This document shows positions 17,707 through 37,898 of a stretch of 64,000 bases of DNA, piece after piece. The notes beneath the pieces are model-generated. The model was not told the origin of the DNA. It saw only the letters and a program-made list of their open reading frames with translations, and made no database searches. Every line of letters begins with the position of its first letter. The stretch's first letter is position 1. The DNA is from Candidatus Spongiisociaceae bacterium (GTDB lineage Bacteria; Actinomycetota; Acidimicrobiia; Spongiisociales; Spongiisociaceae). A program made the position numbers and the translations under genes. The stretch lies in the NCBI GenBank assembly GCA_965219685.1, contig CBDCOH010000002.1:1376001-1440000 (forward strand). The letters are read 5' to 3'.

Positions 17707-19431
17707 TCAGAGCATCCGCTGCTGGCCGCGTTCCTCGAGCCGGCTGGCCCCTACGTACACGACGACCGACAGTACGACTATCACAACTGCAGAACCCCAG
17801 GCCCGAGGCATTTCGAGACCGGCATAGGAGATGGCGAAGAGCCACCCGAGTCCGTCGCGGCCGGTGAGGAACTCTCCCAGGATGGCGGCGACGATCGCCA
17901 GGGCCCCGTTCAGCCGAAGGGCGGTGAGCAGGTCGGGCACCGCAGACGGCAACGCCAGGTGGCGCAGCCGGGCATGCCGTCGCGCTCCCATGACCGAGAA
18001 GACATCGTCGGCACCAGGAGGGGTGGAACGGAAACCGGAACTGACCAGAACGAACGTCGGGAACATCGACACCAGGGCGGCCACCGCCACGACGGTCGTC
18101 CGCGTGTAACCGATCACCCTGGCCATGATCGGCACGGTCGCCACCAGCGGCACCGAGTACATGATGATCATCGGCGTGGTAAGCATTCCCTTCAGCACCG
18201 GAGACAGCCAGCCGGCCAGTGCCACTGCCAGCCCGATCAGGCTTCCGACCGCCAAGCCCACCGCAGCCATCTGCAGCGTATTGAACGTGTATTCGAGGTA
18301 GGTACCCGGGTCGGCGGCGATGTCGCTCACCACCGACGAGGGGGTCGGCGCCACTATGGGACTCACCTCCCAAACCGTGACCGCGAACTGCCAGAAGCCG
18401 ATGACGACGACGAACGGCCACACCGTGAGGGCGATGTCGCCCACTCGCCGGCGCCAAGAGGGGGACTCCCCGTGCCCCTCCGTCGATCCGCCGGTACCCG
18501 CCAACTCCCTGACGTCTTGGCGCACCGAGAAGTCACGACGCCGGACCAGTTCCTCTATCAAGGCGAGGAACCCGAAGGCCACGATCGCTATGAACGCGGT
18601 GAGCCCGGCCGCGGCCCACAGCCTGGCCGTGAAGAACTGCTGGAGCGCGACGACCATCACCAGGCCCAGTCCCGGCTCGGTCGTGCCGAACCACTCGCCG
18701 AAAACGACGCCGAACATGGCGGCGGGAGCGCCGAGCTTGGCCGCGTACACGATCGAGGGCAACACCGCCGGCATCTCGAGCCTCCAGAACCGGCCGGTCC
18801 TGGAAGCGCCCAGAACGGTGAACACATCCTGGTGGGACCGGCTCACGAGGTTGAAGCCGGAACTCACCGCGATGAAGCTCGAGAAGAACACCGCCAGGCT
18901 CGCGAAGACCAGCGGGGTCGCGGACGACGAGACCACCATGACGATGAGCGGACCGAGAGCGATCCAGGGAATGGAGTTGACGACGGTGGCAAGGCGACCG
19001 ATTCCCCGCCGGAGCGGGGTGATGAGCAACCCGACGATGGCCAGGGAGACGCCCAGTGCCATTCCGGCGGCGAAGCCTCTCACCGCGTCCCAGATCGTGC
19101 CTATGCCGGCTCGCCAGAGTATCTCCCTGTCATCGGAGAGAGACTTGAGAACATCGGAAAAAGGCGGCCAACCCCTACCGAACGCCTCGGCTTGGCCGAC
19201 CAGTTCCCAGGCGGCGAGGAGGACCGCGACGCCCCCGATCCCCAGAACGGCTGATCGCCAGCCCGATATGTCCTTTGCGGGGATGGCTAGGCGCCCTTCG
19301 ATCGACCGGAGCCGGTGCCGCTCCGGCAGTCCGTACCCGACCACCGTCGACCCGGTCGTGACGATGACAAGGCCACCACCGCTAGTCCTGTGCGGCCGAA
19401 ACCGAACCCTCCGGTTGCCATGTCCGATCAT
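17707..19431 (-). CDS. ABC permease with two fused SsuC-like domains (start uncertain)
   Basis: Halves align with 312..1079 and 1079..1915 (NSIPWIALGP; AAKLGAPAAMFGVVFGEWFG; SMFPTFVLV). Confidence 0.88.
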   Translation of the reverse strand: MIGHGNRRVRFRPHRTSGGGLVIVTTGSTVVGYGLPERHRLRSIEGRLAIPAKDISGWRSAVLGIGGVAVLLAAWELVGQAEAFGRGWPPFSDVLKSLSDDREILWRAGIGTIWDAVRGFAAGMALGVSLAIVGLLITPLRRGIGRLATVVNSIPWIALGPLIVMVVSSSATPLVFASLAVFFSSFIAVSSGFNLVSRSHQDVFTVLGASRTGRFWRLEMPAVLPSIVYAAKLGAPAAMFGVVFGEWFGTTEPGLGLVMVVALQQFFTARLWAAAGLTAFIAIVAFGFLALIEELVRRRDFSVRQDVRELAGTGGSTEGHGESPSWRRRVGDIALTVWPFVVVIGFWQFAVTVWEVSPIVAPTPSSVVSDIAADPGTYLEYTFNTLQMAAVGLAVGSLIGLAVALAGWLSPVLKGMLTTPMIIMYSVPLVATVPIMARVIGYTRTTVVAVAALVSMFPTFVLVSSGFRSTPPGADDVFSVMGARRHARLRHLALPSAVPDLLTALRLNGALAIVAAILGEFLTGRDGLGWLFAISYAGLEMPRAWGSAVVIVVLSVVVYVGASRLEERGQQRML

Positions 19432-21929: not shown

Positions 21930-22922
21930 ATGAGCGCCAACCGCTCCTACCGGGAAGAGGATCGTGCTGTCGAGGTCGACGGCGCAACGCTGGCCGGGAC
22001 GCTCGCCCTCCCCACCACGGAGGGCCCGTGGCCCGTGACGCTCCTCCTGGGAGGCACGTTCTCGGATCTGAGGGATGCTGATGTGGATCCCAGGCTGTGG
22101 CCGGGGGTGCCCAGGCGCGGCATGTACGCGATCCTCGCCCGCGGGCTGGCGGAGGCGGGCATCGCCTCGTTCCGCTTCGACCGCAGGGGCGCCGGCGAGA
22201 GTACGGGAGAGTTGGGCGTCGAGCGCGCCCAGGAGGTCGCTGACGCCGGGACCGTGTGGCGATGGGTCAGGTCCCTTCCGGAGTGCAACGGCAGGGCGGC
22301 CATGCTGGGCCACAGCGCCGGCGCCTACGTGCTGTGCCGGGTGGCGCACGAAGTGGGCCAGCCCGACGCGGCGGTGCTCCAAGGCGCCCTGTACCGCACG
22401 ATCGCCGAACTCCTCGAATACAACTACCGCCTGGTACGCGACTACCTGGGCCTCGGGGAATCCGAGGCGGCATGGGTGAGGGAGAACTCCCCGAAGGCCT
22501 ACGAGGATGCGATGATGATGGACACCATCGTGGGGGCGATCGAGAACAGAGAGCCGCAGGCCGTTGCGGAGCTGAAGGGCGATAGGAGAACCCGTGACCT
22601 GTCGAGCCTGCGGTACGACCTGGACCTTCCTCCCGAGGAACAGTTCCGCCACCTGGCCGCCCCCGCCCTCGTGCTGCACGCCTCCGAGGACCTGAACGTC
22701 CCCGTGGAGGACGCCTTCGACACGGTCCGCGCCTTGTGGGCCGCCGGGAACCGGGACGTGGAGTTGAGGGTGGTCCCGGGCGCCAACCACTCGTTCCAAC
22801 TGGACGCCGAGGACTACGCCACCCGGGTGCGGGAGAAGATCACGATGAAGAACTTCGGGCGACCCTTCCATCCCCTCTATCCGAGAGTCGTGATCGACTA
22901 CCTGACAAGAACGCTCCTCTGA
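21930..22922 (+). CDS. Alpha/beta hydrolase
   Basis: LAGTLALP, RFDRRGAGES, GHSAG nucleophile, D.NVP, GANH. Confidence 0.85.
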   Translation: MSANRSYREEDRAVEVDGATLAGTLALPTTEGPWPVTLLLGGTFSDLRDADVDPRLWPGVPRRGMYAILARGLAEAGIASFRFDRRGAGESTGELGVERAQEVADAGTVWRWVRSLPECNGRAAMLGHSAGAYVLCRVAHEVGQPDAAVLQGALYRTIAELLEYNYRLVRDYLGLGESEAAWVRENSPKAYEDAMMMDTIVGAIENREPQAVAELKGDRRTRDLSSLRYDLDLPPEEQFRHLAAPALVLHASEDLNVPVEDAFDTVRALWAAGNRDVELRVVPGANHSFQLDAEDYATRVREKITMKNFGRPFHPLYPRVVIDYLTRTLL

Positions 22923-23045
22923 TCCTGCCGCAAGGTTCCAATGCTGTCATTGTTCGCTCTGCCCCGACTTTGATCGGGGCTAACCTCGGCGTTGGGGCCT
23001 GTGATCGGCCAGCCGTACACGTCGTGTACCTGTTAGGAGAGTCCG

Positions 23046-24470
23046 ATTAGCTCGCGATCCGTCACCTGCGACCTTCTCATCAGCGGCGGCGTGGTCGTCA
23101 CCGTCGATGACCGGCGTCGCGTGATCGATCCGGGCGTGGTGGCGATAACCGGAGACCGGATCGTCGGGGTCGGGAACCGGCACGACATGCGCCACTACCA
23201 CGCGGACCGGGTGATCGACGCTTCCGGTGCAGCGGTCCTACCCGGGCTCGTGGACACCCACCAGCACCTGTTCCAGTACCTGACCCGCGGTCTGGGCGAA
23301 GGTCTGGAGCTGTGGCCCTGGTTGTCCGACTTCATGTGGCCGGTGACCACCGCCATCTCCCCCGAGGAGGCGAGGATCGGCGCGCAACTCGGGGCTGTCG
23401 AGGCGGCCCGCTCCGGCGTCACCACGATCCTGGACAACCATTACGCCCCCACCGACTTCCAATCCACACTGGCCGTGGCCGACGCCATAGCCGCGGTCGG
23501 ACTGCGCGGTGCGGTTGCCAGGGGCATGACCGGGGAACTGACCGAGATGGCGGCCAAGCACGGCCTGGCCGGCGAGTTGTTCCGCTACTCCAACCAGGAG
23601 GAGCTCGACATCACCCGGGCCTGCATCGAGGCTCGTCCACCCGGCGCCCGCGTCGGCGTCTGGCCGGCCCCCCTCAACATCATCTACGTCGACCAGCAAC
23701 TCGTGGTCGATGCAGTAGGCCTGGCCCGCGAGACAGGCACCGGCTGGCACTCGCACTGCTCGGAGGCAGCGAACGACCCGGTCTTCTACCTGGAGGAATA
23801 CGACCGCAGGCCGGTCGAGTGGCTGGCGGAACAGGGCCTGTTGGACCGGCGAGCCACCCTGGCCCACGGGATCTTCCTGGATGACCGCGAGGTCGAACTG
23901 GTCGGGGACTCGCGGACCGGCATCGCCTACTGCCCCATCTCCCATCAGTACATCGCCTTGGGGGTGATGCGTCTGCGCGACCTCCGCAGGGCCGGCGCCA
24001 CCGTCGGCCTCGGTCTCGACGGGGGAAGCGGGCACCGGCTGGACATGTTCGCCTGCATGAAGCAGGCGGTCCTCCTGCAGCGGGTCCACACGCAGAACCC
24101 CACCGAGTCCAACGGTGAGGAGGCGATAGAGCTGGCCACCAGGGTCGGTGCCGAGTACATGGGGATCGAAGCCGGCGTGATCGCCCCCGGAAAGCTTGCG
24201 GACCTGGTGATCGTGGACCAGTCCGCTCCCCACCACGCGCCACTCCACCGCACGGTGGCATCGGTTGTCTACTCGACCAGTCCCTCCGACGTGACCCACA
24301 CGATCGTGGGGGGCGAGGTCATCTTCGAGAACGGGAGCTGCACCATGGTGGACGAAGCGGCGGTAGTGGAGGAAGCCAACGGACGGGCGGCCGACCTCGT
24401 GTCGCGGGCGGGGCTGACCTCCCTTCTCGAGCCTTGGCGTACAGCCCCGGCGGCTTCGGGCAAGGAGTGA
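23046..24470 (+). CDS. MtaD/SsnA/TRZ-ATZ-type amidohydrolase (deaminase); probable ATT start
   Basis: PGLVDTHQH, HSHCSE, AHG, GLGLDG; conserved CDLLISGG lies upstream of the first GTG (23091); AGGAG 6 nt before ATT. Confidence 0.85.
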   Translation: MSSRSVTCDLLISGGVVVTVDDRRRVIDPGVVAITGDRIVGVGNRHDMRHYHADRVIDASGAAVLPGLVDTHQHLFQYLTRGLGEGLELWPWLSDFMWPVTTAISPEEARIGAQLGAVEAARSGVTTILDNHYAPTDFQSTLAVADAIAAVGLRGAVARGMTGELTEMAAKHGLAGELFRYSNQEELDITRACIEARPPGARVGVWPAPLNIIYVDQQLVVDAVGLARETGTGWHSHCSEAANDPVFYLEEYDRRPVEWLAEQGLLDRRATLAHGIFLDDREVELVGDSRTGIAYCPISHQYIALGVMRLRDLRRAGATVGLGLDGGSGHRLDMFACMKQAVLLQRVHTQNPTESNGEEAIELATRVGAEYMGIEAGVIAPGKLADLVIVDQSAPHHAPLHRTVASVVYSTSPSDVTHTIVGGEVIFENGSCTMVDEAAVVEEANGRAADLVSRAGLTSLLEPWRTAPAASGKE

Positions 24471-24560
24471 GACATCGGCTGGAGGATATCCACAGAGTGG
24501 CGGTTGTAAGCGCGTTCCAGGTCTGTTCCGCTTAGCTCACGTTCACGATATGATCTGTCT

Positions 24561-24920
24561 ATGACTACTAAGACAAGATACTACAACGTTACCGGGCGGG
24601 ATTTCCTTACCAAGGCTCGGAGCTACCTAGCCGAGGGAGACCTGCTGCAAGCCTCCGAGAAAGGCTGGGGCGCTGCCGCCCAAATGGTTAAGAGCGTCGC
24701 CGAGGCCCGAGGATGGCCCCACAACGGGCATCACGAACTATGGCGTGTGGCCAACCGCCTCGTGGACGAGACCGGAGACCGGGACATTCGGACCGCATTC
24801 ACTGCTGCCGGCGCCCTGCACACCAACTTCTACGAAGGCTGGTTACCTCGCGAACACGTCGAGGACTGCCTTGCCCAGGTCGAGGAGTTGATCTCGAAGC
24901 TGGAAGCTCTCGCCGCCTAG
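24561..24920 (+). CDS. PaREP1-family (HEPN-like) protein
   Basis: QASEKGWGAAAQMVKSVA, LHTNFYEG; TATGAT -10 six nt before ATG (leaderless). Confidence 0.82.
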   Translation: MTTKTRYYNVTGRDFLTKARSYLAEGDLLQASEKGWGAAAQMVKSVAEARGWPHNGHHELWRVANRLVDETGDRDIRTAFTAAGALHTNFYEGWLPREHVEDCLAQVEELISKLEALAA

Positions 24921-25422
24921 CCGGCGGATGCCGGGTGTCTCGGCTCACGACCTTTCATCCTCGCCCGCCAGGCGCCATCAAGTCGCGAAAAACGCCGAGG
25001 TCCATCCCTGCACAGGGCCCGCCCCCAACCTCCACCTTGCCTGGGCGTGGGCGCGAACCCCTGGTCCGCCACCGTGCAGATGCTCCGCGATCATGTTCCC
25101 TCGGGCGGTCGAGCCGACGTCGAACGCTGGACCGCCGGGTGCTTGGTCAGATACGAGTAAGCGTGCCGGAAGGGTGTGACAGGGTCAACCCCCCTGTGCC
25201 TCGGGCTGTGCGCCCGGCTCGAACCCTGGCAGGGTCAAGTACCCTCACAGCCCACTGGTTCTCCGGCTTCAACCAATCTCCTGGGGTTGCCGCCAGGCAG
25301 GCCGGATGCAGAGAGTCGAGGCACGAGCGGGTAGGTTCTGTACGGTTTGTGCCGACCCGGCGGTCTCTCGAAGCCACGGTGGCCAGCGCCGGGAGCAGTC
25401 AGTTGTCTGGAAAGGAAAACCG

Positions 25423-26388
25423 ATGGGCGAGATCGAAGCGACCTGGGACTTTCGCGACCCGTACCTGTGGATGCAGAAGACGGCGCGGAGCGCGTTGCCG
25501 CCTTTGATCATCACCGCGGCCATCAGCGGCGGCGGCCACGGTAAGGAGTCGAACGCGGCCCTGCCGGAGACGCCGGAGGAACAGGCCGCGGAGGCCCGCC
25601 GGGCGTACGAGGCCGGGGCCTCGCAGATCCACGTGCACGTGAGGGACCCGCAGGACTGGAGCCAGTGCAGTGGCAACCGGGAGGACTACGGGCGGGTCAA
25701 CCGGATGATCCGCGAGCAGTGCCCGGACGTGATCATCAACAACAGCACCGGCGGGGGCCCGACGCTAACCACCGAGGAGCGTTATTCGCCCCTGTTCGCC
25801 GATCCGGCGCCCGACGTGGCGACGCTCAATCTCGGACCCTTCGTCTCGCGCTTCACAATGCCCGAGAGGCCCGACCACCTGCCGCATCCACGGGGACCCG
25901 TCGAGTACGACATGTGCAGCGGGACGACCTACGGCGAGCTCAACCACTACGCCTCGGTGATCGCCGAGCGCGGCATGAAACCAGAATTGGAGATCTACGA
26001 CCCCGGCCAGTACTGGGTGCTCCGGGACCTCATCTACAACCAGAACGTGACCCCTCCCTACATGGTCCAGTTCGTCCTGGGCGCGCAGACGGCATCCTTC
26101 CCGACCCCCGCCAACCTCACGTCGCTCATCAGCGAGCTGCCCGCCGGAGCCCTGTTCTCGGTGATCGGGACGGGACCGTTCCAGATCCCGATGAACGTCC
26201 TGGGAATCCTCCTCGGCGGCCACGTGCGAGTGGGGCTGGAGGACAACATCTACTACCGGCGGGGAGAGAAGGCAACCGGTAACGCGCAACTGGTGAGCCG
26301 CATCCGGCGCATCGCCGAGGAGATGAACCGGGAGATCGCCACCCCCGCCCAGGCCCGCCAGATGCTCGACCTCCCGCAGGTCGCATGA
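25423..26388 (+). CDS. Beta-keto acid cleavage enzyme (BKACE/Kce, DUF849)
   Basis: IITAAISG, PETPEE, AGASQIHVHVRD, INNSTGG, KPELEIYD, GGHVRVGLEDN, NAQLV. Confidence 0.92.
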   Translation: MGEIEATWDFRDPYLWMQKTARSALPPLIITAAISGGGHGKESNAALPETPEEQAAEARRAYEAGASQIHVHVRDPQDWSQCSGNREDYGRVNRMIREQCPDVIINNSTGGGPTLTTEERYSPLFADPAPDVATLNLGPFVSRFTMPERPDHLPHPRGPVEYDMCSGTTYGELNHYASVIAERGMKPELEIYDPGQYWVLRDLIYNQNVTPPYMVQFVLGAQTASFPTPANLTSLISELPAGALFSVIGTGPFQIPMNVLGILLGGHVRVGLEDNIYYRRGEKATGNAQLVSRIRRIAEEMNREIATPAQARQMLDLPQVA

Positions 26389-26443
26389 GCGGCCATGGCT
26401 GTCAGGTGAGCACCGAACTCGGCGACGGACCGGGAGGGTCCGG

Positions 26444-27781
26444 GTGGTAGGCGCCGGTCCGCGCCGCCAGGTCCTCAACCTGGGTTCGTTCCCCGTCACC
26501 GATGTCCGGGCAGGCTCCGCCACGGCCCTGGCCGGCGGAGTGCTCACCGTCGACCTCGAGGAACTGGAGAGGATGCTGTCCGACGATCCCAACTTCGCCG
26601 CAGTCTCGGTGAGGATCGTCAGGCCGGGAGACCCGGTTAGGGTCATCAACGCCATCGACGCCGTCGAGCCGCGGATCAAGGTAGACCCCGTGGGCGCTGA
26701 CTTCTCGGGACTGCTCACCACGCCCCGGTTTGTCGGCCTCGGCACGACCCACGCCCTCAAGGGGGTGGCGGTGGTCGAGACCGCCCTTCCGGTGCCGGGA
26801 GAGCCCCGCTACTGGCGTGAGGCGATCTTCGACATGGCCGGACCCACCGCCAAGTACTCCCCCCTTTCCGAGCTTTTCAACGTGGTGGTCTCGTGCGAGC
26901 CCACCCGGGCCCTGCTGGAGAGCAGCGACCGGCCCACCAACGTCTTCGAGGGAACGCCGGAGGCGGTGGAGTACAACAAGGCGGTCCGGCTAGCGGGTCT
27001 CAGGGCGGCAACTTACCTGGCCGAGACAACCCTGGGGATGGAACCCGAGCGGTCGGACACCTACGACCTGGCCCCGTCACCCGCCGACGGCCTGCCGGCC
27101 GTCGTGTATCTGTACCAACTCGCCATCCCGTTCCTGCACGGCGAGATCGCTCCCGGCGCCGGCGCGATCGGCGGAGCGGCCCACCTTCCCACGCCGATCC
27201 ACCCGAACGAACTGCTCGACGGTGCGCTGGTGTGCGGCTGGAACGCCATAGCCTGCATGAGGGAGCTCACCTACACCGTGCAGAACCATCCCATCATCGA
27301 GGATCTGTACGCCCGCCACGGCCACGACATCGACTTCCGCGGCGTCGTGCTGTTCACCAACGGCGACACGCGCGCCGCCAAGGAGCGTTTGGCCAACCAC
27401 GCGGCCAACCTGGCGATCATGATGGGCGCCGAGGGGGCGCTGATCAACTACGCCGGAGGTGGGCATCCCGCCGTCGACGCCATGATGATCTGCAGGAATC
27501 TCGAGCGGCGGGGAGTGACGACCACGATGCTGTCCATGGAGATGGCCGCCAATCCCGGCGAGTCCGGCTTCGTCCACTTCGTCCCGGAGGCCGATGCCAT
27601 CGTGAGCACCGGGAACTACGAGGAGACGGTCCCGTTCGAGCCGGTGGAGCAGGTCATCGGGGGTGACGCGATGATCCAGATCGAAAGCGACCCAGCCGGC
27701 GCGTTCGAAGCCCCATTGGCCATCGTCATGGCCAGCACCCACCAGTTCGGCGGAACACACATACGAGGCGAGGAGTACTGA
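26444..27781 (+). CDS. Glycine/sarcosine/betaine reductase component B proprotein-like subunit (GrdE/GrdG/GrdI family)
   Basis: RPGDPVRV..IDAVEPRIKV, HPNELLDGALV, TY..QNHPIIEDLY, EADAIVSTGN. Confidence 0.85.
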   Translation: MVGAGPRRQVLNLGSFPVTDVRAGSATALAGGVLTVDLEELERMLSDDPNFAAVSVRIVRPGDPVRVINAIDAVEPRIKVDPVGADFSGLLTTPRFVGLGTTHALKGVAVVETALPVPGEPRYWREAIFDMAGPTAKYSPLSELFNVVVSCEPTRALLESSDRPTNVFEGTPEAVEYNKAVRLAGLRAATYLAETTLGMEPERSDTYDLAPSPADGLPAVVYLYQLAIPFLHGEIAPGAGAIGGAAHLPTPIHPNELLDGALVCGWNAIACMRELTYTVQNHPIIEDLYARHGHDIDFRGVVLFTNGDTRAAKERLANHAANLAIMMGAEGALINYAGGGHPAVDAMMICRNLERRGVTTTMLSMEMAANPGESGFVHFVPEADAIVSTGNYEETVPFEPVEQVIGGDAMIQIESDPAGAFEAPLAIVMASTHQFGGTHIRGEEY

Positions 27782-27790
27782 GGGGTTCCC

Positions 27791-29116
27791 ATGGCCAAGA
27801 TCGTCCACTATCTCAACCAGTTCTTCGGAGGGATGGGCGGCGAGGACCGCGCCGGCACCGGCCCGGTCTCCCAACCCGGTCCGGTGGGAACGGGCCGCGG
27901 ACTGGCCCGTCTCCTGGAGGCCGACCACCGGATCGTGGGGACGGTGATCTGCGGCGACAACTACATGGCACAGGGAGGGGCACCGGCCGTCGACGAGGTG
28001 GTCGAGTTGATTTCCGGGTTCGGTCCGGATGTGGTGGTCGCCGGGCCGGCCTTCGGATCCGGGCGGTACGGCCTGGCCTGCGGTGCGGTCTGCCGGGCGG
28101 TGACCGACCGGCTCGGCATCCCGGCCGTGACGGGGCTCCACGCCGACAGCCCGGGCGCCGCCGAGTGCCGGGCATGGGTTCCGATTCTCGCCACTGCCGA
28201 GACTGCCGCAGGCATGGGTGTCGCGCTCGAGAACCTCGCCCGGCTGGCCATGAAACTCGCACGCGGTGAGGAGTTGGGGAGCGCCGACGAAGAGGGGATT
28301 CTCACCAGGGGCCTTCGCCGCAACAAGTTCGAAGACCTGCGCGGATCGACCAGGGCGATCGAGATGCTGCTCTCCAAGATGCGAGGGGAGCCTTTCAGGA
28401 CGGAGTGGCCACTCCCCCGCTACGAACCTGCGGAACCTTCCGAGCCGATAGAAAGGGGCGCCCCCTTCCGGCTGGCACTGGTAACCGAGGCGGGGATCGT
28501 CCCGGCGGGAAACCCCGACCGGCTGCCATCCGGTTGGGCGACCGACTGGATGACCTACACGATCCACGACCGGGACGGCTTCGCGGAGGGCGAGTTCGAA
28601 TCGGTCCATGGCGGTATCGACACCAGCTTCGCCAACCGTGATCCCGATCGCCAGGTTCCGCTCGATGTGGCCCGATCGATGGAGCAGGAGGGCCGGTTCA
28701 GCCTCCATCCCGAGCTGCTCAGCACAACGGGAAACATGGGCACCCTCCGTGACATGACCCGCATCGGTGCCGAGATGGGACGCGCGTTGATCGCCGACGG
28801 CGTTCAGGCCGCCATCGTCGGTTCCACCTGAGGGACGGGGACGCGTAGCGGGTCTACGCTTGCGAAGTCGATCGAGAACCAGGGCGTTCCGGCCGCCCTG
28901 GTTACGGCGCTGGTACCGCTGGCGGAGTCGGTGGGGGTGCTGCGAATCGTCCAGGGCAAGGCCGTCACCCATCCGTTCGGCGACCCGACCCTCGAGGCCG
29001 CCGACGAACTCACGTATCGCAGGCTGGTGGTCGAGACCGCCATCACCGCTCTGGAAACGAACGTGGCGGAACCCACGGTGTTCGAAGTAGGAGATCGAAC
29101 GGCCGCGGTGGGGTAA
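27791..29116 (+). CDS. Glycine/sarcosine/betaine reductase selenoprotein B-like subunit (GrdB family), Sec at codon 347
   Basis: HYLNQFFGG..GE, TVICGDNY, GPAF..GRYG.ACG, GIVP.GNPDR, HGG.D; in-frame TGA at 28829 in ST-U-GTGTRSG, followed by GrdB-like C-terminus HPFGDP..RRLVVETA..TVF. Confidence 0.9.
28843..28859 (+). promoter_or_regulatory. Bacterial SECIS-like hairpin
   Basis: GCGTAG-CGGGT-CTACGC stem-loop starting 11 nt after the UGA, G-containing apical loop. Confidence 0.72.
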
Positions 29117-29157
29117 AATGCATAGCTAGCCGTCACTTTTCGGCTGTTTTCGACGGC

Positions 29158-30303
29158 ATGATGTACACAAGCTCACCCAGGCACCACAACGGAGCTTCTT
29201 TCTGCTTGGCGTGAGAGGAGTCGGCAAGAGCACTTGGGCGCGCTCCGTGCTGCCGGACGCATTGCGCCTCGACCTGCTCGACGAGGCGCTGTTCACCGAC
29301 CTGCTGACCGACCCGTCACTATTCGCAAGGCTTATCTCCGGGCGACACAGCGGTCAGTGGGTGGTGGTGGACGAGATACAGCGGATACCGAGCCTGCTCA
29401 ACGAGGTGCACCGCACATCGAGGAGAGCGGTATCCGGTTCGCGCTGCTGGGTTCGAGCGCCCGCAAGCTGAAGACCGCCGGGACCAACCTCCTGGCAGGC
29501 CGAGCCCTGCGCAAGGTGATGTACCCGCTCACCGCTGCCGAACTCGGCGACGACTTCGACCTCGACCAAGTGCTCCAGTACGGCACGATCCCACTCGTCT
29601 GGGTCTCGGATGAGCGCCGCGAGGCGCTCGAGAGCTACACCCAGCTCTACCTGCGGGAGGAGATCAGGGCCGAAGCGGTGGTGCGGAACCTGGCCGGATT
29701 CGTACGGTTCCTGCCAATCGCCGCGCTGATGCACGCCCAACTCGTGAACGCGGCCGGCATCGCACGTGACGCCGGTGTCGCCCGATCCACGGTCAATGGC
29801 TACTTGGAGATCCTGGAGGACACTCTCGTGGCCACCCGGCTACCGGCGTTAGACACCAAGCTTCGGGTACGTGAGCGTCGGCGACCGAAGCTCTACTGGG
29901 TGGATCCCGGCCTGGTAAGGGCCATCAAGCGACGCCTCGGGACGGTGGCCTCTGAGAAACCGGGCCCGCTCTTGGAAGGATGGGTGTTCGGCACCCTCCG
30001 GGCCCACGCCGAACACCACCATCTCTACGACGACATCGCATACTGGGCCCCGGCCCAGTCGCAGACCGAGGTCGTTTCGTCCTCACCCGCGACGGAAGGC
30101 ACCTCGCCATCGAAGTCAAGGCCGCTCGGCGCTACCACACGTCCATGGTCAAAGGCCAGCGGGCCATCGCGGATCTGGCAGGACTGACCCGCCGCATCCT
30201 GGTCTACACCGGCCCGCACACCTTCCGCACGAACGACGGCATCGAGGTCTGGCCTCTCACCACCTTCCATGAAGTCATCGCCGAGGACCGCCTCTGGCCC
30301 TGA
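29158..30303 (+). pseudogene. AAA_14/DUF4143 ATPase, frameshifted
   Basis: GVRGVGKST, VDEIQRIP, LLGSSARKL, KLYWVDPGL, AIEVK distributed over different frames; shifts near 29175, 29415 and 30075. Confidence 0.82.
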
Positions 30304-30444
30304 ACCGGACACGCAACTCACCCTGGACCGACACCACCACGTTCACCACACCCACGGCCCCGGCAGCCCCCCAGGGCGCAGGAACATCGCGACGTCAGTG
30401 GTCAGGTGTCAACGGACAACGAGCAACGGACAACGGATCCAGCC

Positions 30445-31848
30445 CTAACGCCTCCAAGGGGTAAGGAGGCCATGCAGGCCGGCCCGGTCGATGAGGTCTT
30501 CGGAGCGGGATTGCGCCTCCTCCATGACCTCGTCCTCGTCGACCATGGTGCAGCGGCCGTTCTCGAGAACGATCCGGCCGTCGATGATGGAGTGGACCAC
30601 GTCAGAGCCCCGGGCACAGTAGGTGAGCGCCGAGACGGTCCGGTGCCAGGGCGTCAGGTGGGGACTCTTCATGTTCACGACGATCAGGTCGGCCAACTTG
30701 CCGGGGGCGATCACTCCGGCCTCGATGTTCGCGTAACGGGCACCCTCCCTCGTCGCCATCTCCAGAGCCTCCTCACCGTTGCTGATGGTCGGCTCCAGGG
30801 TGTGCACGCGTTGCAGGAGGATGGCCTGCTTCATCACCTCGAACATGTCCTGGCGGTGGTTGCAGCACGGTCCGTCGGTACCGAGGCCGATCGGAGCGCC
30901 GGACGCGCGCAGTTCGCGCAGTCTCATCACCCCGAGAGCGATGTACTGGTGGGAGATCGGGCAGTAGGCGATTCCTGTCTCTGTCTCGCCCACATGGTCG
31001 ATCTCGGCGTCATCCAGGTAGATACCGTGGGCGATGGTCGCCTCGGGTCCCAGCAGGCCTTCCTTGTACAGCCACTCGACCGGCCGGATGCCGTACTCCT
31101 CGAGGTAGGTCGGCGGATCCTCCAGACGCTCCGAGCAGTGGGTGTGCCACCCGACCCCGCCCTCGCGGGCCAGCGCCACGCTGCGCCGGACCAGGTCCTG
31201 GTCGTTGTAGATGATGTTGAGCGGCGCCGGCCAGACCTCGACCCGCCCACCGGCCGGGTACTCCTCCATGGCGGTGCGGGTGATCTCCATCTCCTCGTCG
31301 TTGGTGTAGGAGAAGAGTTCCCCGGCGAGGTTGTACCGGCGGGCGATGTCGGTCGCCTCGCCGGTGATCCCCCGCGCCACGGCACCCCGCAACCCCACCT
31401 CTCCGATGGCGCCTGCCACGGCCAGGGTGGTGTCGAGATCCGACGGCGCGTAGTGGAGATCGACAACGGTGGTGGTACCGGCCTTGAGCGCCTCCACCGC
31501 TCCCAGCCTCGCTCCGATCCGGCCTTCCTCCAGGTTGATGGAGATCGAGAACGGCCACATGAAGTCGGTCAGCCAGGTCCACAGCGGCATCCCCTCACCG
31601 AGGCCGCGGGCCAGGCCTTGGAACAGGTGGTTGTGGGTATCGATCAACCCGGGGAGGACGGCGGACCCGGAGCAGTCGATGGTGCGCGCTGCCCGGTATC
31701 CGGCCATGTCCTCGTCGGAGCCGACCGCCACGATGCGGTTGCCCGACACCGCGACGGTTCCCGGATCGATTACCCGGCGCTCGTCGTCGACGGTCACCAC
31801 GGAGCCTCCGGTCAGGAGGAGGTCGCACTCTCGGTTTGTCTCGTTCAT
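30445..31848 (-). CDS. MtaD/SsnA-type amidohydrolase; paralogue of 23046..24470
   Basis: PGLIDTHNH, HTHCSE, AHG, GLGTDG; shared YCPISHQYIALGVMRL. Confidence 0.9.
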   Translation of the reverse strand: MNETNRECDLLLTGGSVVTVDDERRVIDPGTVAVSGNRIVAVGSDEDMAGYRAARTIDCSGSAVLPGLIDTHNHLFQGLARGLGEGMPLWTWLTDFMWPFSISINLEEGRIGARLGAVEALKAGTTTVVDLHYAPSDLDTTLAVAGAIGEVGLRGAVARGITGEATDIARRYNLAGELFSYTNDEEMEITRTAMEEYPAGGRVEVWPAPLNIIYNDQDLVRRSVALAREGGVGWHTHCSERLEDPPTYLEEYGIRPVEWLYKEGLLGPEATIAHGIYLDDAEIDHVGETETGIAYCPISHQYIALGVMRLRELRASGAPIGLGTDGPCCNHRQDMFEVMKQAILLQRVHTLEPTISNGEEALEMATREGARYANIEAGVIAPGKLADLIVVNMKSPHLTPWHRTVSALTYCARGSDVVHSIIDGRIVLENGRCTMVDEDEVMEEAQSRSEDLIDRAGLHGLLTPWRR

Positions 31849-31863
31849 CTGGCCAACCTCCTT

Positions 31864-32796
31864 CTATCCGGCGGCTGTCCCGCCTGTATCCTCATCACGG
31901 TCCGGGATCCGCAGGAGGCGAGAGGCGGTGCCCCCCATGATCGCCGCGAGCTCGTCCGGCGTCAGTGCGGGCCCCCCGACCTGTTCGGCCACCCGGTTGA
32001 CACTGTGGAAGATGCCGGAAGCCACTCCTCCCGGACCGGACTTCTGCTTGTCGTTGTTGTCGGAGCCGTAGACCGCCCGGTCCAGCGCGTTCAGGCTCCT
32101 CAACTTGTTCAACACCCGGTACAGATCCCGTGGGTCTCCTCCCGCGTAGTAGGACAGGTCCGCGTAGAAGTTGGGATGGCGAGCCACGACCGCGATCCCC
32201 TCGTCGACATACGGGAAGGCCAGGTAGACGACTACCTTGAGGCCCCGGTAGCGGATACCTAGCTCGTCGAGCAGCATCGGGCGGGCGTGGTGTATGGGAG
32301 CGTTGATGATCGGCGTGAACCCCGTGTGGGTGTGGATCGGGATGTCCAGTTCCAGACACTTCTCGTAGACGGGCGCCAGCCGCCGGTCGGCGGGATCGTG
32401 ATGGTGATAGGTGGGAAGGAGCTTCATCATGCGGAACCCGTACTCCCGGACGCAGCGATCGATCTCCTCGGTCGCCCACCGCACATCGCGCAGCGGGTCC
32501 ACACACACCACCCCGTAGAGACGTCCCGGATGGGCCGCACACTGGGCCGCCGTGTAGTAGTTCGGCACGTACACCTCGTGCTCCTCCGGATGGCTCGGAT
32601 GGAACGTGGTACGGCGCAGGTCCGATCCGTGAGCAAGGCCCACCTCGATCCCGGCCTCGTCGAGGAGTTGGACCAGGGCGGCGCCGTCCGTCCAGCAGTA
32701 TTCGCCTCCGTAGGGGCGGTACAACTCCTCCATCCACCAGACGGGCGCATGGCGGGGGGTCTCGGTCAGGTAGAGCAGGACGTCGACGGTGGGCAT
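31864..32796 (-). CDS. Amidohydro_2-type amidohydrolase lacking HxH
   Basis: MPTVDVLLYL, DLRRTT, HTHTG, YGSD. Confidence 0.85.
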   Translation of the reverse strand: MPTVDVLLYLTETPRHAPVWWMEELYRPYGGEYCWTDGAALVQLLDEAGIEVGLAHGSDLRRTTFHPSHPEEHEVYVPNYYTAAQCAAHPGRLYGVVCVDPLRDVRWATEEIDRCVREYGFRMMKLLPTYHHHDPADRRLAPVYEKCLELDIPIHTHTGFTPIINAPIHHARPMLLDELGIRYRGLKVVVYLAFPYVDEGIAVVARHPNFYADLSYYAGGDPRDLYRVLNKLRSLNALDRAVYGSDNNDKQKSGPGGVASGIFHSVNRVAEQVGGPALTPDELAAIMGGTASRLLRIPDRDEDTGGTAAG

Positions 32797-32800
32797 CGGC

Positions 32801-33700
32801 TCAGTCCAGTTTGTACAGGCGGCGGGCGTTGCCACCGACTATGCCCTCGATCTGCGCTGCGACGAAAGGCTCCCGGTATGTGCGCTCGGCTACCTCGTTC
32901 AGTTCGTCCAGCAGGTGGGTCCCGATCTGCTGACCCCCGCCGGTCCGGTCCTTGTCGTTGTTGTCCGAGCCGTACACGACGCGTTCGAGTGCGTTCAAGC
33001 CCCGGAGCTTGTCGAGAGCGTCAAACAGGGGCTCGGGGCCGGCACCGACGAAGTAGGCGATGTCGGCGTGGAAGTTGGGATGGCGGGCCACCACGGCGAT
33101 CCCCTCATCGACGTAGGGGAAGTTGATGTACACGAGTACCCGCAGATCTCGATGGCGGATGCCGATCACATCGAGCCTCTCAGGATGGCCGTACCGGAGT
33201 GCCGCCGTGATGGTCGGCGAATACCCGGTGTTGACATGGGCGACGATGTCGAGTTCCTCGCAGCTCTCCAGCATCGGCGTGACAGCCGGATCGTCTATGT
33301 AGTAGTTCTGGTAGGTCGGCAGGAACTTCGAGGATCTGAAACCGTACTCCTCGACGCATCGGCGTTGCTCTATGACTCCTGCCCTCACGTCTCTCAGGGG
33401 ATCGATGTTGGCGACGCCGATCAGCCGGTCGGGGAACAGGGCCACCTGCTGGGCCGTGTAGTCGTTGGGGACGAACACGTGGCGCTGGTCAGGGAAGTCC
33501 GGATGATAGGTGGTACGGCGGATGTCGGACCCCTGGACCATCCCGATGTCGACACCACCCCGGTCGAGGATGCCGACGATGGCAGCGCCGTCCGTCCAGA
33601 TGTATCCACCGCCGTAAGGACGGTACATCTCCTCCATCCACCAGATCGGCGCCTGCTCGGCGGAGTCCGTCAGGTGGAGGTGGCAGTCGACGGTCAGCAT
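32801..33700 (-). CDS. Amidohydro_2-type amidohydrolase
   Basis: DCHLH, DIRRTT, HPNFHADIA, YGSD. Confidence 0.88.
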   Translation of the reverse strand: MLTVDCHLHLTDSAEQAPIWWMEEMYRPYGGGYIWTDGAAIVGILDRGGVDIGMVQGSDIRRTTYHPDFPDQRHVFVPNDYTAQQVALFPDRLIGVANIDPLRDVRAGVIEQRRCVEEYGFRSSKFLPTYQNYYIDDPAVTPMLESCEELDIVAHVNTGYSPTITAALRYGHPERLDVIGIRHRDLRVLVYINFPYVDEGIAVVARHPNFHADIAYFVGAGPEPLFDALDKLRGLNALERVVYGSDNNDKDRTGGGQQIGTHLLDELNEVAERTYREPFVAAQIEGIVGGNARRLYKLD

Positions 33701-33727
33701 CGGAAGCTGCCCTCCACGGGATCGGTG

Positions 33728-34951
33728 CTACGGGAAACTGATGACTCCTTCCTCGGCCATGTACCTCAACTCGGGCTCGCCGCACCCTATCAAACCGCCC
33801 AGGATGTCCCGGTTGTGCTCGCCGAGTGACGGGCCGGTGGTCCGCACGCCGCCCGGGGTCGCCGACAGGCGGCCGACCAGGTTCTGCATGCGGACCGGAC
33901 CGAGTACGGGATCCTCGACCGTGGTGACGGTCTCGTTGTGGACGAACTGGGGATCCTCGAGTATGCCGGTGATGTCGAGGATCGGTGCGATGGCGGCGCC
34001 CGCCTCGCTGAAGGCGGCCACCACCTCTTCGGCGTCCCGGGCACCCACCCACGCCCCTATGGCTTCGTCCAGCTCGTCCTGATGCAGGAGGCGTCCCGCG
34101 TGGTTGGCGAACCATGGCTCGGCCGCCATCTCGGGCCTTCCCACCAGGCGGACCGTGCGCTCGGCCGTGGACTGGGACGAGCCCGAGAGCCCGAGCCACA
34201 CCCCGTCCCGCGAGAGGTAGGCGTTGCGGGGAGCGGTGAAGGGCGCCCGGTTTCCGGTCCTACCCTGGACGATCCCCAACTGGTCGTAGATGGTGGCCTG
34301 CGGTCCCAGGAGCCAGAAGATGGGTTCGTAGATCGACAGGTCGATCACCTGACCCGTCCCGTCGCCCAGGTCGCGTGCCCGCAGCGCCGCCATCGTCAGG
34401 AAGGCTCCGCTCAGGCCGGCTATCCCGTCGGCCAGGGCGAACGGCGGCAGAGTCGGCGGCCCGCCCGGGTGCCCGTTGATGTGAGCGAAACCCGACATCG
34501 ACTCGGCCAGCGTGCCGAACCCGGCCCGCTCCCGGTAGGGGCCGGTCTGCCCGAATCCGGTCACCCGGACCATGACCAGCCGGGGGTTGACCTCGGACAG
34601 GTCGTCCCATCCGAGACCCCAGCGTTCCATGGTCCCCGGCCGGAAGTTCTCGACGAGTACGTCCGCCCCCTCCACCAGGCGCAGCATCGCCCGCCTGCCC
34701 AGGTCGTGGGAGAGCTTGAGGGTGACCGCCCGCTTGTTCCGGTTCACGACCGCCCACCACAGCGAGACCCCGTCCTTCTCCCAGCCCAGGTTCCGCAGGC
34801 TGTCCCCCGCCGGATGCTCCACCTTGATCACATCGGCGCCGTAGTCCCCGAGAAGGGTGGCGACCATGGGCCCGGCGAACAGGGTCGCCGCGTCGATCAC
34901 CCTCAACCCGGCGAGGGGACCCGCCATGGCGGGGCTTCGGTCATCGTGCAT
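33728..34951 (-). CDS. CaiB/BaiF family III CoA-transferase
   Basis: GPLAGLRVID, AGP, GADVIKVE, NRNKR, ENFRPG, GFGQTGPY. Confidence 0.92.
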   Translation of the reverse strand: MHDDRSPAMAGPLAGLRVIDAATLFAGPMVATLLGDYGADVIKVEHPAGDSLRNLGWEKDGVSLWWAVVNRNKRAVTLKLSHDLGRRAMLRLVEGADVLVENFRPGTMERWGLGWDDLSEVNPRLVMVRVTGFGQTGPYRERAGFGTLAESMSGFAHINGHPGGPPTLPPFALADGIAGLSGAFLTMAALRARDLGDGTGQVIDLSIYEPIFWLLGPQATIYDQLGIVQGRTGNRAPFTAPRNAYLSRDGVWLGLSGSSQSTAERTVRLVGRPEMAAEPWFANHAGRLLHQDELDEAIGAWVGARDAEEVVAAFSEAGAAIAPILDITGILEDPQFVHNETVTTVEDPVLGPVRMQNLVGRLSATPGGVRTTGPSLGEHNRDILGGLIGCGEPELRYMAEEGVISFP

Positions 34952-36503: not shown

Positions 36504-36540
36504 TGTCACAGCCGGGTCCTATAATGCGAACATATGTACG
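36504..36540 (+). promoter_or_regulatory. Candidate DNA-damage promoter: PafBC/RecA-NDp-like motif plus LexA-like box
   Basis: TGTCAC-N10-TATAAT followed by CGAAC-ATAT-GTACG overlapping the ATG. Confidence 0.6.
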
Positions 36541-37898
36541 ATCACCTACTCGACTACCCCGAACCCGACACGGTCAAGCCCCGCGACTTCCTCGACCGGG
36601 GTGGTGCGGAGCCGGACGGCGACATGTTCACCACCCGCTACCAGAGGGAATGCCGCAGGGTCTATGAACGTGCCCGCCACATGGCCGAGCGTTCGGACTA
36701 CGCGCACGCGGACGTGGAGGACGCCAAAGCCGAGGCCGCCCTGGTCAGGGCCCAAGCGCAGGTCAGCCGGGCCCGCGGCGACCAGGTCGGCTGGGTGCGC
36801 CACATGCTACGGCGGGGTGCTGTGGCAAGGTTCGGGTATCGCAACCCCACCGAGATGGTCGCCTCACGACTCGACGTGCGCCGCTCCGTCGCCCGCGACC
36901 TCGTCTATCTGGCTGAGCGGCTCAGCGATAACCAGGTCGAGTCGATCCGCCACGGTTCGGTCTCCTACGAGCGGGCGTTGGCAGAGACACGACTGAGCGA
37001 TGCCGGCGCGTCACGGGAGGTGATCGAACGAAGCCGCGGCGACGACCTCGAATCGGTCAAGCGGATCCTCCAAGCACATCGCCGCATGAGCCGCCACGAC
37101 GAACGCCGAATCTTCGAAGGCCAGTACCTGACCCTGCAGCCCTCCCTGGACGGCAGCCACGTGCAGGTCAACGGCCGGCTCGCCGCCCTCGAAGCCGAGA
37201 TATGCCGCAACGGCCTGGACCGGCGCGGCGAAAAGCTCCTACCCGCCGGCGAAGACCGTCCCGACGCAGGACAGAGAAGAGCCCTGGCCCTCACCACCCT
37301 ATGCCAGGACGAACTCGACCGCAGCCCACAACCCGCCCGCACGACCACGGAACGGTTCCGGGAGGCCTCCAGACGCCGCGAACCGGCCCTCATGGTCGTC
37401 GCCGACCAGCAACTAGCCGACAAATCAGGATACGAACAAGGCGCAGCAGTACTCGCCGGCGCCCGGGTAGGACCCGACACCATAGACCTCATCCGCTGTG
37501 TCGGCACCACCGAGACAATCACCGTGGCCGGCCACGACATCATCCAACACGGAACGACCACATACCTGACGCCGTCGCTACGCCGTGCCGTGCTAGCCCG
37601 AGACGACGGATGCACCATCGACGGATGCACATCCACCTACCGGCTCGAAGTCCACCACATCACCCCCCGATCCGAAGGAGGGGACCACAGCCCCGACAAC
37701 CTCACCACCCTGTGCTGGTGGCACCACCACGTATCCATACACCGCCGAGGCATGCGCATCGACCCCCAATCACCACCCCGAAGACGGCGGCTACTACCAC
37801 CCACAAGAACCTGCGGCTACCAGCCACCCGACCCCGACCCCCACACCCTCGCCATACTCCGCGCACTCCACACCCGCCCCAACCGGTCCCCACCCTGA
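36534..37898 (+). CDS. DUF222/13E12-like HNH endonuclease
   Basis: LRRAVLARDDGCTIDGC..EVHHI..GG..NL.TLCWWHH. Confidence 0.87.
   Translation: MYDHLLDYPEPDTVKPRDFLDRGGAEPDGDMFTTRYQRECRRVYERARHMAERSDYAHADVEDAKAEAALVRAQAQVSRARGDQVGWVRHMLRRGAVARFGYRNPTEMVASRLDVRRSVARDLVYLAERLSDNQVESIRHGSVSYERALAETRLSDAGASREVIERSRGDDLESVKRILQAHRRMSRHDERRIFEGQYLTLQPSLDGSHVQVNGRLAALEAEICRNGLDRRGEKLLPAGEDRPDAGQRRALALTTLCQDELDRSPQPARTTTERFREASRRREPALMVVADQQLADKSGYEQGAAVLAGARVGPDTIDLIRCVGTTETITVAGHDIIQHGTTTYLTPSLRRAVLARDDGCTIDGCTSTYRLEVHHITPRSEGGDHSPDNLTTLCWWHHHVSIHRRGMRIDPQSPPRRRRLLPPTRTCGYQPPDPDPHTLAILRALHTRPNRSPP

Follow-up and report, generated by a model that had tools for sequence, protein, structure and literature searches.

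A gene for a β-keto acid cleavage enzyme (BKACE) lies directly upstream of genes for a GrdE-like proprotein and a GrdB-like selenoprotein in a 64,000-nucleotide stretch of the genome of a Candidatus Spongiisociaceae bacterium (the window; C2:1376001-1440000, where C2 is contig CBDCOH010000002.1), and this trio is a conserved, clade-specific unit rather than a chance neighborhood. The trio is the core of a catabolic island of ~13 genes; relatives and marine Acidimicrobiia have this island in compact form, and in the present genome, a 4.42-Mb assembly of two contigs, its genes are scattered. The gene set of the island, its strict co-occurrence, the signals for selenocysteine (Sec) decoding, and the lack of GrdD are established by our analysis; what we say of function beyond family membership is inferred from sequence. 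The conserved gene set probably serves to degrade a compound rich in nitrogen by a route not yet described, and the best reading is a Grd-type system for a new substrate that is fed by, or works beside, β-keto acid cleavage. An earlier interpretation of the window, made from its letters alone and called here the original prediction, had proposed a stand-alone candidate module for amine or betaine catabolism, which a nearby 3-hydroxyacyl-CoA dehydrogenase (3HCDH)-family gene would fit and which might, for example, convert carnitine via betaine to trimethylamine. The module, which proved to be conserved, and the 3HCDH membership held up; the stand-alone character and the carnitine route did not.

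Conservation of the BKACE, GrdE and GrdB genes

The three genes of the trio are real and co-directional, with gaps of 55 nt between the BKACE and GrdE genes and 9 nt between the GrdE and GrdB genes, in agreement with the close same-strand spacing originally described (coordinates in Table 1). BKACE matched PF05853 over profile positions 1-274 of 274 (273.5 bits, cut-off 24.8), the GrdE-like protein matched PF09338 (322.8 bits, cut-off 22.2), and the GrdB-like protein matched PF07355 (391.1 bits) and TIGR01918 (430.4 bits, cut-off 65.45), the general selenoprotein B family in which NCBIfam places it. All three proteins scored well under every function-specific NCBIfam cut-off. Equivalog scores for GrdE/GrdB, given with their cut-offs, were 224/780 for GrdG, 430/800 for GrdF, 416/602 for GrdB, and 371/775 for GrdH, so that GrdH was the lowest-scoring of the three models for the GrdB-like protein, after GrdF and GrdB. 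For BKACE, Kce was the best model (NF052387, 240/382), followed by NF053538 (183/430), which we take to represent the BKACE of the phloroglucinol route, and NF053568 (166/350); none was passed. The BKACE start at 25423 (MGEIEATWDF) is kept in 6/6 aligned orthologues, which does not support a longer open reading frame (ORF) from 25306. A GGGAGG sequence precedes the GTG start of the GrdE-like gene. The window has a G+C content of ~65%. A scan of positions 22800-30400 for promoter- and terminator-like sites returned no promoter-like and four terminator-like sites (3.1 expected), and an Rfam scan of the window at gathering thresholds gave no matches.

The order BKACE-GrdE-GrdB(TGA), with BKACE immediately upstream of GrdE, was found in 15/15 orthologous loci from three genera of the family. 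Among these loci, identities were 89-98% for BKACE, 80-96% for GrdE, and 70-92% for GrdB, making BKACE the most conserved member. In a survey of 77 GrdE loci from genome collections, BKACE was directly upstream of GrdE in all 21 loci with GrdE identity of at least 55% (17/17 at 80% or higher and 4/4 at 55-56%) and in 0 of the 56 remaining loci (identity of 50% or lower) within the flanks fetched. GrdB was seen wherever the contig continued (16/17 and 3/4 loci in the two groups, respectively), and the BKACE and GrdE matches abut or overlap in loci L037 and L042. Near-identical loci came from metagenome-assembled genomes of sponge-associated Acidimicrobiia (Ca. Spongiisociaceae); the four loci at 55-56% identity are on contigs of a marine Acidimicrobiia type, of which two are filed under other phyla. 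The 15-locus set and the genome-collection loci derive largely from the same genomes and are kin, so these counts overstate independence.

Approaching the linkage from the BKACE side gave a consistent picture. Of 66 metagenome loci, 11 had BKACE identity of at least 68%; GrdE and GrdB genes followed in 7/7 of these contigs with downstream room, and in the other 4 the contig stops at BKACE or within it. The nine loci at 54-59% BKACE identity, and all lower ones, had no Grd genes. Orthologues of BKACE occur in 16 of 41 relatives, which are exactly the 16 with a GrdE orthologue. In a FastTree phylogeny of 119 GrdE-like rows, with SH-like support only, the 22 BKACE-linked rows group in a single clade (SH-like 99), whose sister is the Acidobacteriota protein of locus L055. 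This clade is nested in a large non-Firmicutes radiation, and Firmicutes GrdE, GrdG-like, and GrdI-like proteins lie on the opposite side of the tree. The neighborhood survey that the original prediction had named as its check thus found a linkage that is both conserved and specific to one clade.

Selenocysteine, active sites and Grd partners

Reading of the UGA codon in the GrdB-like gene as Sec is predicted, with support from a hairpin that is conserved and from tRNA-Sec, selB, and selD in the genome. A TGA occupies the same codon position in the window and in 20/20 related loci (21/21 sequences), and a SECIS-like hairpin (SECIS, selenocysteine insertion sequence; GCGUAG-CGGGU-CUACGC) begins 11 nt 3' of the UGA. 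This 17-mer is identical in 18/21 sequences, although adjacent third codon positions vary synonymously. The exceptions are L051, with a double change that preserves pairing, L043, with a loop change, and L055, with a related hairpin. A wider 70-nt fold after the UGA was not better than shuffled sequences (z = +0.9), so that the evidence from folding is limited to the local hairpin. The genome carries tRNA-Sec, selB (322.7 bits, cut-off 242), and selD (366.9 bits, cut-off 125). The selD gene (C2:2564589-2565512) has its own in-frame TGA, and SelD itself is thus a predicted selenoprotein.

The GrdE-like protein diverges at the position where processing would be expected. It has CGWN, with Trp-Asn, where Geosporobacter GrdE and GrdG-like proteins have SGNC, whose Asn-Cys bond we take to be the site of pyruvoyl-forming self-cleavage; the DGA/TY anchors around this loop align without gaps. 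Among 119 rows examined, 118 of them parsed, only two Firmicutes GrdE/GrdG-like rows have Cys at the canonical site. The 13-mer LVCGWNAIACMRE is identical in all 22 BKACE-linked GrdE proteins, and its second Cys (Cys271), four residues past the canonical site, is kept in 22/22 of these rows, with Cys or Ser conserved at this position in many distant homologues. This pattern may reflect a shifted self-cleavage nucleophile. The betaine-type GrdI-like protein of Geosporobacter also lacks the canonical Cys, and a non-pyruvoyl, betaine-type enzyme may be compatible with its absence here; at the processing site, the window protein is unlike both canonical GrdE and the GrdI-like protein. A PDB sequence search with the GrdE-like protein gave no hits.

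The best characterized relative of the window BKACE is Kce, an enzyme of an amino-β-keto acid. In an alignment with Kce (PDB 2y7d, whose sequence gave 154.8 bits), the HxH motif and the ED motif both matched, as seen in the BKACE/Kce pairs IHVHVRD/IHLHIRE, NNSTGGG/QISTGGA, ATLNLG/ATLNAG, ELEIY/EVEVY, and HVRVGLEDN/HIRCGFEDN. The positions that we take to be the Zn ligands and the catalytic Ser/Thr/Asn/Glu/Arg/Asp residues of Kce are all kept. Unlike Kce, the window enzyme has a GGGHGKE loop in place of the loop with the amine-binding Glu, an N-terminal WDFRDP extension, and an insertion of ~35 residues. BKACE subgroups were reportedly defined by Bastard et al. in 2014. The nearest sister clade (54-59% identity; L149, L153, and L154) shares a GGHGKE loop and has a gene for a tungsten-type aldehyde:ferredoxin oxidoreductase next to BKACE in 3/4 annotated contigs; genes for ThiF, a class V aminotransferase, malonyl-CoA decarboxylase, and thiolases also lie nearby, and none of these gives a clue to an amine substrate.

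Clostridial glycine, sarcosine, and betaine reductases combine GrdE/B, GrdG/F, or GrdI/H with GrdA, GrdC, GrdD, and thioredoxin, GrdD being the component C α subunit that forms acetyl phosphate. The window itself contains no grdA, grdC, grdD, or thioredoxin reductase gene, as originally noted. Stand-alone is a fair description of the window, however, and not of the genome: Sec-GrdA (NF040748, 202.6 bits, cut-off 130, with its own UGA) and GrdC (NF040746, 589 bits, cut-off 450) are encoded together at C2:1715575-1718206, ~310 kb from the trio and ~275 kb past the window end. The genome has no other GrdA or GrdC match, and these two proteins are the only partners for the GrdE and GrdB of the window, which are the sole GrdE and the sole full GrdB. 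A clan-AA protease-like ORF lies between grdA and grdC, with EamA transporter genes on the flanks. Elsewhere, C2:2667467-2667832 gave a weak partial PF07355 match (34 bits) in a 169-aa ORF that has no internal stop and is remote from other Grd genes.

All 16 relatives with the trio have both GrdA and GrdC. GrdC was found in 17 genomes and GrdA in 18, the extras being both proteins in G003, which carries other Grd paralogues, and a partial GrdA match in G019. The two genes adjoin the trio in G004, G005, G006, G015, and the marine loci, with grdC-grdA just upstream of BKACE in G005 and G006. By contrast, the search for grdD elsewhere in the genome was negative. The best GrdD (NF040747) score in this genome was 28 bits against a cut-off of 350, and GrdD was found in 0/41 relatives at E<=1e-10 and above cut-off in 0/4 further genomes (G041-G044); the positive control, a Geosporobacter genome, scored 614 bits. 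One TrxB homologue (44% identity) is encoded at C2:3.47 Mb, unlinked to the trio, and no thioredoxin or thioredoxin reductase genes were seen in the island clusters, trxA not having been searched for.

From the equivalog-level scores of GrdA and GrdC, the downstream carboxymethyl chemistry is probably canonical. The system thus shares with clostridial Grd enzymes the PF09338 and PF07355/TIGR01918 families, GrdA and GrdC at equivalog level, Sec in GrdB and GrdA, and predicted reductive cleavage of a Cα-N bond. It differs in GrdE and GrdB proteins far under the substrate-specific cut-offs, Trp-Asn in place of Asn-Cys, the absence of GrdD from the 41 relatives and four further genomes, the absence of adjoining trx genes, BKACE as an obligatory neighbor, and hosts that belong to the Acidimicrobiia of sponges and the open ocean, not to the fermenting Firmicutes. 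A role for BKACE as a stand-in for GrdD was rejected as a general explanation, because GrdC-GrdA without GrdD also occurs beside BKACE-less GrdE/GrdB loci in Chloroflexota, Burkholderiales, Actinomycetota, and others; GrdD is likewise missing from G044, an Acidobacteriota genome without BKACE. Judged from L059, L076, L086, L096, L098, L109, G041-G044, and the 41 relatives, GrdC-GrdA without GrdD seems to be the general pattern across the part of the non-Firmicutes Grd radiation that was sampled.

The catabolic island and its dispersal in this genome

The island comprises genes for an ATP-binding cassette (ABC) importer with an NMT1-type substrate-binding protein (SBP), a TRZ/ATZ-type amidohydrolase, two Amidohydro_2 proteins, a GcvT-like folate protein, a 3HCDH-family dehydrogenase, BKACE, the GrdE-like and Sec-GrdB-like proteins, GrdC, and Sec-GrdA. 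In genome G004, a 15.5-kb stretch carries GrdB, GrdE, BKACE, SBP, two Amidohydro_2, GcvT, permease, ATPase, 3HCDH, Amidohydro_1, GrdC, and GrdA genes. The same set occurs in G015 and G010, the three islands spanning 15-20 kb, and G015 has a second GrdE/GrdB pair ahead of GrdC. In marine loci L051, L052, and L054, genes for a fused Bmp+NMT1 SBP, the ATPase, the GcvT-like protein, two Amidohydro_2 proteins, BKACE, GrdE, GrdB, GrdC, and GrdA (L054:14202-14630) lie on one strand, with the 3HCDH gene divergent upstream. This marine operon ends in a tail (L054:14847-20315, and L051) that encodes a Rieske/VanA_C oxygenase, an adenosine-deaminase-family protein, a Rieske-less VanA_C protein, a 586-aa Rieske-FNR-Fer2 reductase, and a glutathione S-transferase (GST). 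The tail may resemble the NdmABCDE methylxanthine (caffeine) N-demethylase set.

Table 1. Features of the trio and its surroundings in the window (positions are those of the window).
Feature	Position	Strand	Family or remark
Amidohydro_2 protein B of conserved pair	5050-5922	-	PF04909; 54% identical to marine operon gene
Amidohydro_2 protein A of conserved pair	5926-6831	-	PF04909
3HCDH-family gene	7892-8887	+	PF02737, PF00725
ABC transporter ATPase	13533-14351	+	PF00005; 65% identical to marine operon ATPase
NMT1/THI5-type lipoprotein SBP (start approximate)	16430-17629	-	71% identical to NMT1 half of marine fused SBP
ABC permease, double BPD_transp_1	17707-19431	-	PF00528; upstream of SBP
TRZ/ATZ-type Amidohydro_1, amino-heterocycle deaminase-like	23091-24470	+	PF01979, 169.8 bits
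BKACE-family enzyme, 321 aa, Zn-type β-keto acid cleavage enzyme	25423-26388	+	PF05853
GrdE-like component B proprotein, 445 aa, divergent processing-site loop LVCGWNAIACMRE	26444-27781	+	PF09338
GrdB-like selenoprotein B, 441 aa, predicted Sec347	27791-29116	+	PF07355, TIGR01918
UGA predicted to be read as Sec	28829-28831	+	single in-frame TGA of GrdB-like gene
SECIS-like hairpin	28843-28859	+	11 nt 3' of UGA
Family III CoA-transferase	33728-34951	-	

The best matches of the marine operon genes in the genome studied here fall in or beside the window. The 3HCDH is 53% identical to its marine counterpart, Amidohydro_2 protein A is 57% identical to the marine gene upstream of BKACE, and a GcvT homologue, 30 kb upstream of the window, is 49% identical to the marine gene. 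Orthologues of the 3HCDH and SBP genes were each found in 15/16 trio-bearing relatives and 0/25 others, the lone exception being the fragmented genome G007, whose contig begins close to the trio. This co-occurrence, and the position of the gene in the same operon region of the marine homologues, bore out the suggestion that the 3HCDH gene belongs with the trio. The nearest solved relatives of this 3HCDH are 3-hydroxybutyryl-CoA dehydrogenases. The SBP, found in 15/41 relatives in a pattern matching that of the trio, has a lipobox-like N-terminus, and the permease gene is kept beside the trio region in relatives. An orthologue of the Amidohydro_1 gene lies directly upstream of BKACE in 7/15 loci of relatives, and an eighth has a PaREP1 insertion, as in the window. 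The nearest solved structure to the Amidohydro_1 protein is 8-oxoguanine deaminase (191 bits), and that to Amidohydro_2 protein A is the LigJ hydratase (42 bits, a weak match). For the Amidohydro_2 protein, the ESM Atlas had nothing more specific than clusters labeled 'amidohydrolase'.

The island is dispersed and interrupted in the genome of the window. A GmrSD-type type IV restriction endonuclease gene (14531-16267, minus strand; PF03235 133 bits, PF07510 89 bits), lies in a stretch of low GC content (0.53 compared with ~0.65 for the window), is wedged between the ABC ATPase and SBP genes, and looks like a foreign insertion. A PaREP1-family ORF (24561-24920, plus strand; PF05942 78.8 bits) lies between the Amidohydro_1 and BKACE genes; at that spot it is absent in most relatives, and G007 has two copies, with copies 3' of GrdB in some genomes. 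A DUF4143 ORF directly follows grdB (29234-30187, plus strand), and an HNH endonuclease-domain gene (36534-37898, plus strand) and an Mrr-type restriction gene (39100-40131, minus strand) lie beyond it; we read these three genes as signs of mobile or defense DNA around the module. Several paralogous sets of an Amidohydro_1 gene and an Amidohydro_2 pair, one of them with a family III CoA-transferase gene, occur at 30445-34951 (minus strand) and C2:1343872-1376051, an expanded gene family in this genome.

Candidate reactions and substrates

BKACE-family enzymes convert a β-keto acid and acetyl-CoA to an acyl-CoA and acetoacetate, as described in a section of PMC11961710. In the reaction sequence that we tentatively favor, while giving it less than even confidence, an imported nitrogen-containing compound would be trimmed hydrolytically, a 3HCDH-family enzyme would oxidize a β-hydroxy acid intermediate to a β-keto acid, and BKACE would cleave a γ-amino-β-keto acid with acetyl-CoA to give acetoacetate and a glycyl- or N-alkylglycyl-type acyl-CoA bearing an α-amino group. 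The aminoacetyl unit would then be bound by the GrdE-like protein, Sec347 of the GrdB-like protein would break the Cα-N bond and release the amine, and the carboxymethyl group would pass to Sec-GrdA and on to GrdC, leaving as an acetyl thioester, with the thioredoxin system as reductant. The partners hint at the nature of the substrate: GrdA and GrdC that are canonical by score suggest carboxymethyl transfer, so that the Grd substrate should be a glycine-type unit, and if BKACE supplies that unit, then the β-keto acid must be a γ-amino-β-keto acid, as in the carnitine route. Amidohydrolase-superfamily proteins, a dehydrogenase for a β-hydroxy acid, and BKACE recall routes that run from a hydrolase or lactonase through a dehydrogenase to BKACE, such as the phloroglucinol route and, as described in part of the literature on it, deoxyribonate catabolism. 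Unlike the window module, these routes are not known to include a selenoprotein reductase or a step that removes nitrogen.

Several observations weigh against this sequence of reactions. A simple γ-amino-β-hydroxy acid does not explain the roles of the amidohydrolase and GcvT-like proteins, and the compact islands encode no thioesterase that could release the amino acid from CoA. The amine-binding Glu of Kce (presumably E14) is Gly in the window BKACE. Around the sister GrdE in L055, there is no BKACE gene within 10 kb, yet the context is similarly rich in hydrolases, and Grd function in this radiation therefore does not generally need BKACE. In addition, gene adjacency does not fix the order of the steps, and the 3HCDH, as a relative of 3-hydroxybutyryl-CoA dehydrogenases, could instead process the acetoacetate product.

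The main rival, which strikes us as possible though doubtful, is a scheme of parallel branches in which Grd would reduce a glycine or sarcosine fragment of a complex, amino- or N-methyl-substituted, N-heterocycle-like feedstock, and BKACE and 3HCDH would handle a separate β-hydroxy/β-keto acid fragment or the acetoacetate/acetyl-CoA pool, BKACE not being the supplier of Grd. Clostridial fermentation of purines or creatinine, in which Grd reduces a glycine or sarcosine fragment, is the precedent. Such a feedstock would suit the two families of deaminase-type amidohydrolases, TRZ/ATZ-type in sponge loci and adenosine-deaminase-type in marine loci, the NMT1/THI5 and Bmp/PnrA types of SBP, the GcvT-like folate protein as a core member, and the oxygenases, reductase, and GST at the end of the marine operon. 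L055, which has a gene for a xanthine-dehydrogenase-family Mo subunit directly upstream of GrdE and several amidohydrolase genes in addition to lacking BKACE, points the same way, as does the position of the window GrdE/GrdB as the sole component B in the genome. Parallel branches leave unexplained, however, why it is BKACE, and no other gene of the island, that is always immediately upstream of grdE (21/21 and 7/7), sometimes overlapping it, and why the BKACE-linked GrdE proteins form their own clade with an invariant active-site loop; moreover, GrdE and GrdB fall far under the glycine and sarcosine cut-offs, and GrdE lacks the canonical Asn-Cys site. The same arrangement of genes would be explained if the reductase acted on the BKACE-made aminoacetyl-CoA itself, with GrdE/GrdB and GrdA/GrdC removing the amine and releasing acetyl-CoA directly, a scheme that we rate as rather unlikely. 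Acetyl-CoA would then be a catalytic carrier, giving as net reaction β-keto acid + 2[H] -> amine + acetoacetate, and the invariant BKACE-grdE-grdB order, the lack of a thioesterase, and the lack of the acetyl-phosphate-forming GrdD would all be accounted for. Action on a CoA ester would also be in keeping with loci of marine Dehalococcoidia in which GrdE-like paralogues are bordered by pairs of CoA-transferase genes. In those loci (L079-L093, from marine or sponge Dehalococcoidia), 2-3 tandem GrdE-like paralogues have two family III CoA-transferase genes on each side and no GrdB within 10 kb, a different use of GrdE-like proteins.

Carnitine, the substrate originally proposed as an example, is unlikely to feed the module. 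In that scheme, L-carnitine would be oxidized to dehydrocarnitine and cleaved by BKACE to betainyl-CoA, and a component B of the GrdH/GrdI type would then reduce glycine betaine, yielding trimethylamine and an acetyl unit. A carnitine dehydrogenase and BKACE route to betaine is established, according to part of PMC9321204, and would, like the reactions that we favor, turn a γ-amino-β-hydroxy acid into an aminoacyl-CoA and acetoacetate; no Grd system is known to be part of that route. The co-occurrence of 3HCDH with the trio and the suitability of the marine Rieske demethylase-like and GcvT-like genes for methylated amines speak for a substrate of this kind, and a GrdE without the canonical Asn-Cys site, like the betaine-type GrdI-like protein, leaves room for a quaternary amine. 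The genome has, however, a separate carnitine-type set at C2:398-405 kb (L126), with genes for a CaiD-like hydratase, an ADP-forming acyl-CoA synthetase-like protein, an IclR regulator, and a 495-aa carnitine dehydrogenase-like protein (NF005471, 411 bits against a cut-off of 414, a near-equivalog; NF005716, 485 against 592). This last gene adjoins a BKACE paralogue (C2:402-405 kb; NF053538, 423.6 bits against 430) to which the window BKACE is only 34% identical; the carnitine dehydrogenase-like gene expected next to a dehydrocarnitine-cleaving enzyme thus sits beside the other paralogue. The window enzymes are distant from this better carnitine pair, the window 3HCDH scoring only 94-116 bits on carnitine dehydrogenase models. 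The preference of the GrdB-like protein for the GrdF and GrdB models over GrdH, and a tree in which the BKACE-linked GrdE clade is far from GrdI-like proteins, likewise speak against betaine. The conserved Cys or Ser four residues past the canonical site may mean that GrdE undergoes processing, and enzymes with a pyruvoyl group are unable to bind quaternary amines. The 'CaiB' gene assigned to the route at 33728 (147 bits on the carnitine CoA-transferase model, cut-off 413) is, by its scores, a family III CoA-transferase rather than CaiB proper, and it is not core to the module, lying near the trio in 4/17 sponge-type and 0/3 full-length marine loci. The substrate is therefore probably neither carnitine nor betaine. 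Very improbable, finally, is an order with the reductase first, in which GrdE/GrdB would open a cyclic or substituted α-imino acid of the 3-hydroxyproline type to a δ-amino-β-hydroxy acid, followed by 3HCDH oxidation and Kce-like cleavage to β-alanyl-CoA and acetoacetate, as in lysine fermentation. Kce is the best characterized relative of the window BKACE, the order of 3HCDH before BKACE fits, GrdE is unlike glycine-type proteins at the substrate loop, and enolase-superfamily (MR_MLE) genes occur in the window (11156-12319) and in L055; the MR_MLE gene is nevertheless missing from the compact islands. The D-proline reductase PrdA/PrdB belongs to the same superfamily and pairs a pyruvoyl proprotein with a Sec subunit, but the GrdB-like protein is full-length (441 aa) and scored only 58 bits on PrdB, and PrdA gave 29 bits. 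The canonical GrdA and GrdC that co-occur with and adjoin the trio favor carboxymethyl transfer over release of a free long-chain acid, and the GrdA/GrdC dependence that this co-occurrence implies is not a Prd feature.

No description of a BKACE combined with a Grd or selenoprotein reductase was found in the literature searched, and the impression of novelty in the original prediction thus stands. The main text of a NetSyn preprint on BKACE genomic contexts contains no glycine, reductase, or selen- terms, its supplementary tables being outside the scope of the search. Grd-type selenoenzymes are the textbook Stickland enzymes of strict anaerobes, and we know of no role assigned so far to the Grd homologues of open-ocean and sponge metagenomes. 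Homologues of grdH are found in metagenomes of the open ocean, even though the pathway is regarded as anaerobic, as one part of PMC9321204 reports.

The present analysis yields concrete proteins and candidate substrates for testing. If the proposed coupling of β-keto acid cleavage to Sec-dependent amine removal is true, then sponge symbionts and marine Acidimicrobiia would have a new route for stripping nitrogen from host- or plankton-derived compounds while harvesting C2 and C4 units, and both the BKACE and Grd families would be extended to new chemistry. If the reductase acts on the CoA ester itself, then bacteria of the oxic ocean would harbor a CoA-dependent branch of the Grd family.

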